This document shows, piece by piece, positions 1,635 to 10,282 of a DNA stretch of 64,000 nucleotides. The notes beneath the pieces are model-generated. The model ran no database searches, was not told the origin of the DNA, and worked only from the letters and a program-made list of their open reading frames with translations. A program made the position numbers and the translations under genes. Each line of letters begins with the position of its first letter. Position 1 is the first letter of the stretch. This DNA comes from Escherichia phage vB_ESM-pEJ01: sequence record OP114734.1; one strand, given 5' to 3'.

Positions 1635-1673
1635 GTTTATTTTTGGAATCCTTTGGATTCCTTTTTCTTTTTG

Positions 1674-1681
1674 TATAAATA
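1674..1681 (+). promoter_or_regulatory. T4-type late promoter box TATAAATA upstream of gene 24
   Basis: Exact TATAAATA about 38 nt upstream of the gene 24 ATG. Confidence 0.6.
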
Positions 1682-1718
1682 TGATATATCCATTAAGGCA
1701 AATACAGGATTCATAAAC

Positions 1719-2960
1719 ATGACTCATATTTTTACTGAACTGTTGCGGGAATCTACTTCCTCAGTAGCTAACCAGACAGCGCGACCGCAACTATTATCAT
1801 TAACTCGCGCGGTAAACAACCTGATTTTCTCTGATCTGGTAGCAATCCAGCCAACGGATCAACCAGTATCTGCATTGTACGGCCTACGTTATCTTAATCA
1901 TGATGGTCAGATGACTTTCCGAACTGCTGCGACCTACGGTGGCGCGGCTGGTGATCGCACAGAGATTGAAGAGTTTTCAAAAGAAAAATCTTATGAAGAA
2001 GGCGCACTATTCAAATCAGGCGATGTTGTATACGAAGTTGTGACCGCTGGTACAGTCGGTGAAGATGCCGCAACTCCAGAAGCTGCGATCTTTAAAGGCG
2101 TAATGACAAACAAAATTCGTTTCTATAGCGATTGTGCATCGGTAGAATACTTTGAAGATAAAAACACCGAAATTTCGTCTACCTCTATGCAGTTTGATAA
2201 ATGGCAGGTTAATGTAGGTTCTCGTAAACTGAAAACCTCATTCACGACCGAATTGATGCAGGATCTTGAGGCAAGCCAAATCAACTCTGAAAACTCTGTA
2301 ATTGATCTTCTGGCTACTGTTGCTTCCGAAGAGATCAACAAAGATATTATTCAGAAGTTGATCACTGTATCATCTCGCTATAAAATTAAAGGGATCACCC
2401 CTGATGGCGTACTTTCTCTCGTTAGCGTTCAGGATGCACCAACACAAGCGCGTGAACTTTACCGCTACGCGTGCGAAATGAGCAATCAAATGTTGCGTAC
2501 TTCCTCCTTTGCTGGTACATACGTTTTGGCTTCTTCTCGCGTGGTTGGCCTCCTGCAATCTACCGGGTGGATGGAAGAAACCGACAATGCTCTAAGCGAA
2601 GGTCGTCTACGTTGCGGTCTGGAAGTGTACGCAGACACGACAACACCTTTCGATTATATGCTCGTTGGTTGTAAGCACATGATCGGTGATATGGAGAGTG
2701 TAGGTTCTCTGTTCTACTCCCCATATACAGAAGCCGACGGCGCTGGCGCGTATAAGAGCGTAATTGACCCTAATAGCTTCCAGCATCATGTAGCTATTAT
2801 GAATCGTTATTCACTCTCTGTCAACCCATACACATCAAAAGTTGATCAGGAAGAACACCAGGTCATCAAGGGTGACGATTGGGGTAAAATGGCTGGACGT
2901 TCAGAAATGTCCTACATTTTAGGAATCGAACTGCCACCGCTTGAGATTGACAACGCTTAA
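1719..2960 (+). CDS. 24: Capsid vertex protein gp24
   Basis: Translation from internal Met MTHIFTELLRESTSS... aligns with T4 gp24 (ELLRESTxT, SDxVAxQ, MAGRS motifs); late promoter upstream. Confidence 0.9.
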   Translation: MTHIFTELLRESTSSVANQTARPQLLSLTRAVNNLIFSDLVAIQPTDQPVSALYGLRYLNHDGQMTFRTAATYGGAAGDRTEIEEFSKEKSYEEGALFKSGDVVYEVVTAGTVGEDAATPEAAIFKGVMTNKIRFYSDCASVEYFEDKNTEISSTSMQFDKWQVNVGSRKLKTSFTTELMQDLEASQINSENSVIDLLATVASEEINKDIIQKLITVSSRYKIKGITPDGVLSLVSVQDAPTQARELYRYACEMSNQMLRTSSFAGTYVLASSRVVGLLQSTGWMEETDNALSEGRLRCGLEVYADTTTPFDYMLVGCKHMIGDMESVGSLFYSPYTEADGAGAYKSVIDPNSFQHHVAIMNRYSLSVNPYTSKVDQEEHQVIKGDDWGKMAGRSEMSYILGIELPPLEIDNA

Positions 2961-3548
2961 CTAAATATCTAACCAAGACAAGTCAGATCCGCCCAAGATT
3001 TTTTCGACGGCGGATCTATTTTCTTGATGATATAAGTTAAAACATGGTATCCCATGTCTACGGGCAACATAAACAGCAATTCGAGTTCCTCCCGAAACGA
3101 TTCCATTAACTTCTTTCGCCCAGAATATCACACAATCTACAGGATCATCAAGTGTCTCACCTAAGACTTGAGCAACATTTCTAGAAAACAGATTTTGCAT
3201 GTATAACGGTATAGAACGAGGATTATCATAAACGTGTTCTAATTCATCCATCGCCAGATTCTTTTGTTCTAAGGTTTGCCATGCAATAACATCATGACCG
3301 TTATGCTTATGGTCATAAAACTTCCAAATTGGAATGAAAATTTTTCTATAATCTGGATCGTAATACTTCATGAAAGCATTGTCCATACCGTAAGCCCCTC
3401 CAGAATGCGCTACAACGCGATTTTCTGACAATACCCTCCCAATGGTACTAGCCATTATCAAAATGTCGTTAGGCGCTTTTCTAGAGCCTATCAAAGCACA
3501 TCTACGAAGTGGTTTTACTCCAAATAGATCTTGTAACTGGTCAAACAT
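2961..3548 (-). CDS. DprA/Smf-like Rossmann-fold (SLOG superfamily) protein
   Basis: Motifs HSGGAYGMDNAF, FSRNVAQVLG and SGGTRIAVYVA resemble the DprA/LOG Rossmann core; sits where T4 has rnlB. Confidence 0.4.
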   Translation of the reverse strand: MFDQLQDLFGVKPLRRCALIGSRKAPNDILIMASTIGRVLSENRVVAHSGGAYGMDNAFMKYYDPDYRKIFIPIWKFYDHKHNGHDVIAWQTLEQKNLAMDELEHVYDNPRSIPLYMQNLFSRNVAQVLGETLDDPVDCVIFWAKEVNGIVSGGTRIAVYVARRHGIPCFNLYHQENRSAVEKILGGSDLSWLDI

Positions 3549-3572
3549 AATATTTCCTCCATAGAAAGCAAT

Positions 3573-3601
3573 ATCATACTACAAGTTAATAACAAATGCA
3601 A
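3573..3601 (-). promoter_or_regulatory. Sigma70-type promoter (TTGCAT-N17-TATGAT on - strand)
   Basis: -35/-10 hexamers with 17 nt spacer about 25 nt upstream of the 2961..3548 start. Confidence 0.5.
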
Positions 3602-3668
3602 GTATCCGCGTAGCGGAAGCGAGCACAGCGAGCAATAAAAACACTTCCAGTAATTGATTAATAAATGT

Positions 3669-3727
3669 TCGAAACAAATTTTTATTATTCTATAAGATAA
3701 GTCTTCGTTTTGATCATAATTTAATCA
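3669..3727. repeat. ~60 bp repeat unit, copy 1 (CGAAACAAATTTTTATTATTCTATAAGATAAGTCTTCGTTTTGATCATAATTTAATCA)
   Basis: Near-identical to 3817..3876 and, inverted, to 55212..55270. Confidence 0.7.
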
Positions 3728-3816
3728 TACATGTAAAAACTACACAAAAGGATATCGCTTCGCGAACCCCTACGGAGTATAACATTTGTGTTACAATATG
3801 TAGTGATTAATAATTA

Positions 3817-3876
3817 ACCAAAGATACATTTTCTATGTTCTAAAGATCTTTCTTCGTTTTGATCATAATTTAATCA
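3817..3876. repeat. ~60 bp repeat unit, copy 2
   Basis: Direct repeat of copy 1; both share the 26-mer TCTTCGTTTTGATCATAATTTAATCA. Confidence 0.7.
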
Positions 3877-3934
3877 AACAGTATTAATATTGTGCACATG
3901 TAAACTAAAATTATGTTAATAACAGATACAAAAA

Positions 3935-3954
3935 AGCCGCCCAGAAGGACGGCT
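3935..3954 (-). terminator. Intrinsic terminator (- strand)
   Basis: Stem AGCCGTCC/GGGCGGCT with one G-U pair, then T-run on the - strand. Confidence 0.55.
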
Positions 3955-3962
3955 AATGTTAA

Positions 3963-4400
3963 TTATTTGTTGATAACGATCTGATTTCGGCGAATGGTAA
4001 CATTACTCTTAGAGATGATCAGATCATCCGGCACTACGTTAGTTTTGTATGGTTGGAATCGAACAAGCATCTGATTGCGTTTAGACCATTCCTTAATCTT
4101 GATTTCCATCTGGATATTGTTGCCTACGTGAGCAACCGCAATTTCACCTTTATTCTCATAGACCCACTTGCTGGTAACGTCTCCAGCAAAAGCCTTAATA
4201 ACTTGCAATGCTTCGTCGTATGCGGTAGAGCTGTGAACTTTCAGAAGGCCAGCCGTAGCAAGACGGGAGCAGGTGATCGCCGGAGATTGCCAAACATCAA
4301 CATTAATTTGCTCAATCAGAGTAACACCGCCCTGATCAACTGCTTTGAATGCTTCGAACATTGCCTTTTTCATTGCTACGTGGTTTTTACGGAATTTCAT
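3963..4400 (-). CDS. Hypothetical protein (145 aa)
   Basis: ORF with terminator immediately downstream; no recognisable motif. Confidence 0.6.
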   Translation of the reverse strand: MKFRKNHVAMKKAMFEAFKAVDQGGVTLIEQINVDVWQSPAITCSRLATAGLLKVHSSTAYDEALQVIKAFAGDVTSKWVYENKGEIAVAHVGNNIQMEIKIKEWSKRNQMLVRFQPYKTNVVPDDLIISKSNVTIRRNQIVINK

Positions 4401-9895: not shown

Positions 9896-10282
9896 TCACT
9901 TTGCAAGTCTTATGCGTAGTTGTTCAAGATCATCTGGGTTATCTATTACTGAAAAGTAGATTGATACTATGATCGAGTTGTCATCATACTGCGGAGTTAC
10001 TTCTACTGTCAGGTTTCGGACCCGTGGTTCATAGTTTCGGATCGCCTCATTGATGTTTTTTGATAAGGTATCCACTGTCAGTGGGTTCATGTTCTCAAAC
10101 AGTGATTTATTGAGATCGCATCCAAACAGTGGATCAAATGGACGAGATCCTTTGCGAGTAGTTACGATCAGTAGAATAGAATCCTTAACCGCTTTAATCC
10201 CTATGTTCTTTTTAACGTCGTTATTCCACGATCTGGATATATTGAGATCCAAATCAGTATACATCTGATTAATAGTTGCCAT
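9896..10282 (-). CDS. 25: Baseplate wedge protein gp25
   Basis: TTRKGSRPFDPLFGCDL and FSVIDNPDD match T4 gp25; ATG chosen at MATINQ after GAGG. Confidence 0.9.
   Translation of the reverse strand: MATINQMYTDLDLNISRSWNNDVKKNIGIKAVKDSILLIVTTRKGSRPFDPLFGCDLNKSLFENMNPLTVDTLSKNINEAIRNYEPRVRNLTVEVTPQYDDNSIIVSIYFSVIDNPDDLEQLRIRLAK

Follow-up and report, generated by a model that had tools for sequence, protein, structure and literature searches.

A DprA-like single-domain SLOG protein beside gene 24 of a T4-related Krischvirus, with a possible role as a nucleotide binder

Next to gene 24, where phage T4 carries the gene for RNA ligase 2 (rnlB), a relative of T4 carries a gene for a protein that resembles DprA; what is this protein, and does it take the place of the ligase? 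The gene lies in a 64,000-nucleotide stretch of Escherichia phage vB_ESM-pEJ01 (sequence record OP114734.1), which we analysed as a whole and call the window; positions are counted from its first letter. The source phage is a Krischvirus, i.e. a T4 relative of the RB49/Phi1/JSE type. The window is 99% identical to Phi1. Over the 2 kb surrounding the gene, identity is 99.8% with phage kvi and 95-99% in 56 of 58 records. The gene is the following:

2961..3548, minus strand: coding sequence of the DprA-like protein, 195 amino acids plus stop codon; a stand-alone SLOG-fold protein of PHROG 768, orthologue of Phi1 phi1p164/ORF164

According to the list of open reading frames (ORFs), it begins with ATG and yields a product of 195 residues. 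The original prediction, made from the letters alone, had quoted two motifs, HSGGAYGMDNAF (residues 48-59) and SGGTRIAVYVA (residues 152-162), and had remarked on the lack of a K-x-D-G nucleotidyl-transferase motif; on reading the sequence we found the ORF and both motifs as described, and no K-x-D-G motif in the 195-residue protein. The product is almost certainly an early-transcribed, single-domain SLOG protein of a large and mainly phage-borne clade (PHROG 768), with the Rossmann domains of DprA and ShosA as its nearest characterised relatives.

To this family assignment, profile searches gave a clear answer. The protein matched the hidden Markov model (HMM) of PHROG 768, labelled 'DprA-like DNA recombination-mediator protein', almost from end to end (residues 15-187 on profile positions 4-181 of 191; E 6.3e-60, 203 bits). 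In RefSeq, the orthologues of Phi1, GEC-3S, ECD7 and JSE bear the same name; the DprA-like assignment is already known, and the present analysis mainly confirms the existing annotation. The Pfam DprA family PF02481 scored 22.4 bits, below its gathering score of 29.6, and aligned with residues 15-60 only, and the Pfam search detected no other domain in the protein. The DprA equivalog TIGR00732 reached 14.5 bits against a cut-off of 191.15, and the PADLOC models of the DprA-like antitoxins PsyrA and ShosA gave weak matches confined to residues 15-61.

An AlphaFold2 model built from a seven-sequence alignment showed a Rossmann-like α/β fold (predicted local distance difference test 86.9, predicted template modelling (TM) score 0.85), with a single Rossmann domain and short terminal helices as the predicted architecture. 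When this model was compared with the PDB by Foldseek, Helicobacter pylori DprA (HpDprA) was the top match (E about 1e-5). Against BFVD, phage proteins of the same clade came first (TM 0.75-0.79), followed after a gap by YspA/YAcAr-type SLOG proteins and a Marseillevirus Rossmann-fold protein (TM about 0.46). The three-layer α/β Rossmannoid fold with a parallel sheet and the structural likeness to SLOG members place the protein in the SLOG superfamily. The fold proposed at the outset is therefore borne out both by the PHROG 768 profile and by the Foldseek match to DprA; the profile searches pointed to no unrelated fold, and the structure prediction that had been suggested as a check returned a confident Rossmann-like model.

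Conservation, computed over 112 diverse family members, is concentrated in three elements:

3480..3488, minus strand: codons of the GSR loop, G21-S22-R23, the DprA 'G-S/T/A-R' motif after strand 1 (G21 invariant, S22 90%, R23 99%)
3177..3191, minus strand: codons of the helix motif L120-F121-S122-R123-N124, the DprA 'F/L/Y-x-x-R-N/D' motif (L120 80%, R123 100%, N124 96%)
3075..3092, minus strand: codons of the GGT loop, G153-G154-T155-R156-I157-A158 (G153, G154 and T155 100%; A158 96%, at the position of the LOG catalytic Glu)

Seven residues are invariant (G21, G50, D56, R123, G153, G154 and T155) and thirteen nearly so (S22, R23, P26, S49, A52, G54, P73, N124, Q127, G130, A158, A162 and N171); R23, D56, R123, N124, Q127, T155 and N171 are the only polar pocket residues among them. 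The placement of G21-S22-R23 after strand 1, together with the (near-)invariant R123-N124-x-x-Q127 and G153-G154-T155, agrees with the motif pattern of the SLOG superfamily.

Importantly, both DprA motifs for binding single-stranded DNA (ssDNA) described by Wang et al. (2014) are present, as G21-S22-R23 and L120-F-S-R123-N124. In HpDprA, the 'G-S/T/A-R' and 'F/L/Y-x-x-R-N/D' motifs were defined as essential for ssDNA binding, and the exchanges R52E and R143E lowered ssDNA affinity by 315-fold and 173-fold respectively (PMC3950713). R23 and R123 of the window protein correspond to these two arginines, as well as to R139 and R234 of ShosA, which are required for ssDNA binding and antitoxin function (PMC12961424). 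In contrast, the LOG signature PGGxGTxxE is missing: the window protein reads V-S-G-G-T-R-I-A, and the position of the Glu is Ala158, with Ala in 96% of the 112 members, none of which matched the Pfam LOG family PF03641. Because the DprA motifs are kept and the LOG Glu is replaced by Ala158, the pocket is better understood as that of a binder of the DprA type than as that of a LOG-type N-glycosidase. The 'DprA/LOG-like motifs' first noted in the protein hence hold for their DprA part and fail for their LOG part.

Judged by its sequence, the window protein is neither a canonical DprA nor a LOG enzyme. Similarity to the DprA/Smf Rossmann domain (PF02481; HpDprA, PDB 4LJK and 4LJR; R. palustris DprA, 3MAJ) is detectable over the N-terminal 50-60 residues only; unlike DprA, the protein has neither a SAM domain nor a C-terminal winged-helix (DML1) domain, its residues ~73-115 form an additional helical insert, and its family occurs among phage accessory, ligase and NAD genes rather than competence or recombination genes. 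ShosA, the antitoxin of ShosTA (PDB 8ZVA), is a protein of 328 amino acids with a SAM domain, an extra C-terminal helix α14 and a phosphoribosyltransferase (PRTase) toxin partner, none of which is found here: no cognate toxin (the PRTase ShosT, or PsyrT) neighbours the gene, and neither ShosA nor PsyrA is matched over the full length of its profile. The LOG phosphoribohydrolases (PF03641, 'lysine decarboxylase-like') differ by the catalytic Glu that the window family lacks, and ThsA of Thoeris differs in that its SLOG domain, which binds the cyclic ADP-ribose (cADPR) isomer 3′cADPR, is fused to a SIR2 or Macro effector. Of the same kind are the viral SLOG proteins of Iyer et al. (2021, 2022), among which the passages devoted to them describe stand-alone phage proteins, repeated fusions to NADAR, Macro and DUF4326, and occasional ones to nucleic-acid enzymes. 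The same passages put most viral SLOGs into a YpsA-like clade, whereas the window family scores nearer to DprA than to YpsA/YAcAr.

How widespread is this family, and what company does it keep? An exhaustive profile search returned 4,349 representatives of clusters defined at 50% identity with E ≤ 1e-3, and 2,770 with E ≤ 1e-10, the majority being stand-alone proteins of about 160-200 amino acids. By tblastn, a homologue was found in 1,344 phage records, with Klebsiella, Pseudomonas, Escherichia, Aeromonas, Vibrio, Acinetobacter and others as hosts; a scan of viral contigs for related loci with the single protein P0167 gave no matches, and the family alignments contained no block of sufficient conservation to serve as a query. 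No Pfam family covers the clade at threshold, although 79 of the 112 members touch PF02481 weakly (best E 8e-7) and 13 touch LDcluster4. Among longer members with an identifiable partner domain, NADAR was fused in four (two of them, of ~1,480 amino acids, also carry YAcAr and LDcluster4 SLOG domains), DUF4326 in three (P0133, P0153, P0209), and Macro and RecJ (DHH-DHHA1-OB; P0092) in one each. The NADAR, Macro and DUF4326 fusions, which we recovered independently, reproduce the description of viral SLOGs by Iyer et al., whose treatment of these domains predicts that they sense or degrade ADP-ribose-derived immune signals (PMC9503650; PMC7824862).

We then return to the locus and the question of rnlB. 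Gene 24 lies on the plus strand (1653..2960), convergent with the DprA-like ORF, tail to tail with abutting stop codons; the placement 'downstream of gene 24 on the minus strand' holds for the ORF and not for gene 24. The order in Phi1 is 23-24, then ORF164 (DprA-like)-ORF165-24.3-ORF167-hoc-inh-uvsW, and that in T4 is 23-segD-24, then rnlB-24.2-24.3-hoc-inh-uvsW, so that by synteny the gene does sit where T4 encodes rnlB. At this locus T4 has rnlB only, and a 16-kb region of T4 gave no match to the family HMM; in the window this model detected the gene just once, and the Phi1 sequence examined contained no further copy. It does not follow that one gene substitutes for the other. Citrobacter phage Moon has gp24 followed by the DprA-like gene and rnlB; two metagenomic T4-like contigs (L015 and L024) have the same order with one small gene before rnlB; and in Klebsiella phage PMBT1 rnlB overlaps the DprA-like gene, the stretch examined there not reaching gp24. 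Where gp24 is in view, in Moon and the two contigs, the DprA-like gene is the one nearest to it. Because the two genes coexist in Moon, PMBT1, L015 and L024, the DprA-like gene does not replace rnlB, and the idea of a substitute holding the rnlB slot has to be given up.

Neither the 64-kb window nor positions 1-157,000 of Phi1 gave a tblastn match to T4 Rnl2. The 415-bp gap upstream of the gene (window 3549-3934, up to the terminator of ORF 3963-4400) might have held the remains of rnlB, a possibility that was rejected: the gap is unusually AT-rich (30% GC) and contains no tblastn signal, no ORF of >32 amino acids and no Rfam family. Phi1 does encode rnlA, pseT, the NADAR protein gp30.3, Alt, ModB and one further ADP-ribosyltransferase. 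'RNA ligase' labels occur on Phi1 gp57B in RefSeq (L021:10428-10892) and, as 'putative RNA ligase', in the matched 2-kb stretch of the Krischvirus vB_EcoM_Skers; neither region has any likeness to T4 Rnl2, and both labels look like annotation carry-over errors.

To compare the neighbourhoods of the gene, we took ~19 loci, some from annotated phages and others from metagenomic contigs, and clustered their flanking ORFs all-against-all. Only two non-structural neighbours recurred, Rnl2-type RNA ligase (six loci) and NAMPT (four loci). The Rnl2-type ligase gene adjoins the DprA-like gene in Moon, overlaps it by 11 nt in PMBT1, and lies one gene off in L015, L024 and Sinorhizobium phage phiM7; in the T5-like Vibrio phage VspSw_1 an Rnl1-type ligase gene lies one gene away, and phiAS5 and contig L014 have RNA ligase genes within about 5.5 kb. 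By a rough estimate, a ligase within two genes in three unrelated lineages is more than expected by chance, which would give a few per cent per locus. Contig L026 (4663-6711) holds a tight cluster of an ATP-dependent DNA ligase gene (PF01068 plus OB_2), a 68-amino-acid ORF and the overlapping DprA-like gene, and the ligase association is therefore not confined to RNA ligases; a PD-(D/E)XK/Cas4-like nuclease gene and a cREC gene follow downstream of this cluster. NAMPT lies within 4 kb in its four loci, one of which, L014, also has a phosphoribosyl pyrophosphate (PRPP) synthase gene. Sir2 is found near the gene in VEcB and Nudix in phiM7, and other loci have an Acb2/Tad1-like gene, SSB, PIF1, a Cas4-like gene, or PhoH with NrdG nearby. 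In their passages on SLOG, Iyer et al. (2022) do not mention a link to ligases.

Several further features of these loci were recorded. In L015 (4540-5540) and L024 (4639-5647) the Rnl2 gene is split into two ORFs, suggesting a frameshift or a pseudogene; a Phage_L5_gp82 (PF25735) gene separates the Rnl2 and SLOG genes, and each contig has two gp24 paralogues. A conserved small partner encoded between ligase and SLOG gene was considered and dropped: the PF25735 gene of L015 and L024 and the unnamed ORFs of phiM7, VspSw_1 and L026 are mutually non-homologous, nor are they homologous to window ORF 3963-4400. In Pseudomonas phage UNO-G1W1 (L006:3058-3546), an ORF of 162 amino acids annotated 'phosphatase' lies 0.4 kb upstream of the DprA-like gene; BLAST groups it with the SLOG family, but the family HMM does not detect it; possibly it is a diverged second SLOG paralogue next to NAMPT.

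What, then, might the protein do? We tentatively propose that it is a non-catalytic binder of a nucleotide in single-stranded or damaged nucleic acid, and that it acts in repair or counter-defence. The pocket would be formed by the loop G21-S22-R23, the helix L120-x-x-R123-N124 and the loops S49-G50-G51-A52-x-G54-x-D56 and G153-G154-T155, and would grip one nucleotide, the base inside and the phosphate on the two invariant arginines, by binding rather than hydrolysis. The gripped nucleotide would be part of single-stranded DNA or RNA, perhaps where the strand is damaged, nicked or ADP-ribosylated, and the protein may shield this site or present it to repair enzymes that in other phages are encoded nearby or fused to it: RNA or DNA ligases, NADAR or Macro ADP-ribose glycohydrolases, or RecJ. 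The outcome would be survival of the phage under attack by host nucleases or ADP-ribosylation. We infer the repair link from the Rnl2, Rnl1 and DNA ligase neighbours, the RecJ fusion and the SSB, PIF1 and Cas4-like genes nearby, and the ADP-ribose link from the NADAR, DUF4326 and Macro fusions and the NAMPT, Sir2, Nudix and PRPP synthase neighbours. The 'nucleotide-handling accessory gene' of the original prediction is a reasonable description, in agreement with what the relevant passages of PMC9503650 predict; on the binding of cyclic nucleotide signals, which it also raised, the analysis spoke neither for nor against.

A number of observations weigh against a nucleic-acid binder with such partners. 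The Arg-Asn pair and the glycine loops are found throughout the superfamily and bind free AMP in LOG and 3′cADPR in ThsA. Since other SLOG families use the same pocket elements for free nucleotides, one cannot tell from the conserved motifs whether the ligand is a nucleic acid or a soluble molecule. A third arginine of HpDprA, R170, is not conserved and aligns with Tyr160. The Krischvirus protein is slightly acidic (isoelectric point 6.4, net charge -2), which is not expected of an ssDNA-coating protein and counts mildly against this role; as a discriminator between ssDNA and a small ligand, the isoelectric point proved uninformative because of its broad distribution in the family (median 8.3). 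Neither a ligase nor NADAR nor NAMPT is encoded beside the gene in Krischvirus itself, and about half of the ~19 neighbourhoods have no ligase; moreover, the ligase loci of Straboviridae share ancestry and are not independent, and the neighbourhood sample is small and non-random. Finally, the clade is discussed computationally in the open-access literature and bioRxiv searched, and no experiment on any of its members was found there.

The readings that compete with a nucleic-acid binder draw on parts of the same evidence. Iyer, Burroughs, Anantharaman and Aravind predict, where they treat viral SLOG domains (PMC9503650; PMC7824862), a role against soluble NAD+/ADP-ribose immune signals, in which the SLOG pocket would sequester or cleave an ADP-ribose-type messenger or toxin, e.g. 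the cADPR isomers of TIR/Thoeris-like systems. We hold this to be somewhat unlikely: the closest relatives by sequence and structure bind ssDNA and are not ThsA or LOG, N-glycosidase chemistry would be left without an identified catalytic residue by the absence of the LOG Glu, the recurrent ligase neighbours and the RecJ fusion would go unexplained, and the literature searched contains no report of a phage SLOG sponge or hydrolase. A true DprA-type mediator, binding phage or host ssDNA and loading UvsX or RecA, is what the RefSeq name implies. DprA is the best match by structure and sequence, both of its ssDNA-binding motifs are kept, ShosA provides the example of a short DprA-like protein that binds ssDNA and RecA, and DprA/Smf copies of jumbo phages have been proposed to be extra ssDNA-binding proteins (PMC7824862). 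Nevertheless, this role appears improbable for a protein that consists of the Rossmann domain only, stays under the gathering score of PF02481 and far under the TIGR00732 cut-off, and is encoded in Krischvirus, which already has UvsX, UvsY, gp32 and gp59; no recombination gene recurs as a neighbour in the ~19 loci, and the fusion partners are mostly ADP-ribose-processing domains.

The weak PADLOC matches bring to mind a mimic of the DprA-like antitoxins of ShosTA or PsyrTA, which would keep the host toxin silent during infection; they are confined to the shared N-terminal motif, the protein has neither the SAM domain nor helix α14, elements that in ShosA are needed for stability or contact the partner subunit in the dimer, and the family is spread over phages of many hosts, well outside the range known for ShosTA, all of which makes mimicry highly improbable. 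Equally hard to credit is a LOG-like phosphoribohydrolase that would split AMP or a modified nucleotide into base and ribose-5-phosphate. This activity has been put forward in silico for ORF83, a phage protein with a Smf/DprA annotation that is reported to counter Avs3 (EVADES preprint, 10.1101/2025.06.06.658234) and thereby provides a precedent for anti-defence action by small SLOG proteins of phages. ORF83 is likewise a small SLOG protein, and its reported features include an R-N pair, a conserved Thr and DUF4326-fused relatives. Yet a Marseillevirus Rossmann-fold protein (D2XAL2 in BFVD), from the giant-virus family that also includes the Tunisvirus protein named as a relative of ORF83, is only a distant match to the window protein (TM 0.46, E 2e-3). 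The reported site of ORF83, moreover, reads R89-N90...T112-x-D114, with a spacing from R to T of 23 where the window family has 32 and an Asp at T+2 where the family has Thr or Ile, and its best PDB match was reported to be LOG, that of the window protein being DprA; on these reported features alone, common family membership looks unlikely. For the window family itself, the unmatched PGGxGTxxE signature, with Ala at the Glu position, and the lack of a Pfam LOG match in 112 of 112 members stand against LOG-type hydrolysis.

The original prediction had also given the gene a promoter of its own, TTGCAT-N17-TATGAT. The signals upstream of the gene are as follows:

3556..3560, minus strand: Shine-Dalgarno sequence GGAGG, 7 nt 5′ of the ATG, by direct reading of the sequence
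3573..3601, minus strand: putative early σ70-type promoter, TTGCAT (3601-3596), 17-nt spacer, TATGAT (3578-3573)
3935..3954, minus strand: intrinsic terminator of the upstream ORF (3963..4400, minus strand), a stem of eight pairs, six of them G-C, then TTTTTTG

The promoter sequence is present as predicted, and its role as a promoter is plausible. It agrees with the σ70 consensus at 8 of 12 positions, which is why a generic promoter scan did not return it. When sites of the class TTGnnn-N17-(at least 5/6 TATAAT) were counted on both strands of the whole window, 38 were found on the minus strand and 10 on the plus strand, compared with 7.8 ± 2.8 in shuffled sequence (~5-fold enrichment on the minus strand). 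Several minus-strand sites of the class read TTGCAA/TTGCAT...TAT(G/A)AT, near-identical ones lying at 9906, 44864, 44527 and 1129. The enrichment and these near-identical sites argue that early promoters with a strand bias form a real class here, and that TTGCAT-N17-TATGAT, the putative promoter of the DprA-like gene, is a plausible member of it. Since the strong terminator at 3954..3935 closes the upstream unit, the gene needs its own promoter, and the predicted terminator isolates it as a transcription unit of its own. No late promoter of the T4 type (TATAAATA) was found upstream of the gene, which would be expressed early.

With gp24 on one side, the gene is flanked on the other by ORF 3963-4400 (minus strand, 145 amino acids; Phi1 ORF165), which has no Pfam match and no homologue beside the DprA-like gene in the other loci examined. 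Elsewhere in the window, five minus-strand sites whose -35 elements start at ~22790, 23034, 26313, 28112 and 39663 form a very strong early-promoter-like subgroup, 'aaaaagttgTTGACAggggatc...gatccccTATAAT', with a GGGGA...TCCCC inverted repeat within the 17-nt spacer.

To the existing annotation we add that the Krischvirus protein appears to be neither a canonical DprA nor a LOG enzyme, that its gene coexists with rnlB in other phages, and that ligase and NAMPT neighbours and ADP-ribose-processing fusion partners accompany the family. A bolder proposal, which we regard as unlikely, is that PHROG 768 SLOG proteins are readers of single-stranded nucleic acid that would recognize a flipped-out or ADP-ribosylated base, a nick or an end and hand it over to NADAR or Macro and to Rnl2, Rnl1 or DNA ligase, as a repair or counter-defence module against DarT-type ADP-ribosylation or nuclease effectors such as Avs. 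If true, this would be a previously unrecognized phage module, of which the stand-alone Krischvirus protein would be the minimal form. To our knowledge, the in vivo role of T4-type RNA ligase 2 is still unclear. Knowing the function of the SLOG protein would annotate a gene found in >1,300 sequenced phages, with about 4,350 clusters defined at 50% identity; the protein could turn out to be a phage repair or anti-defence factor of a new type, and RNA ligase 2 might gain its first physiological partner.

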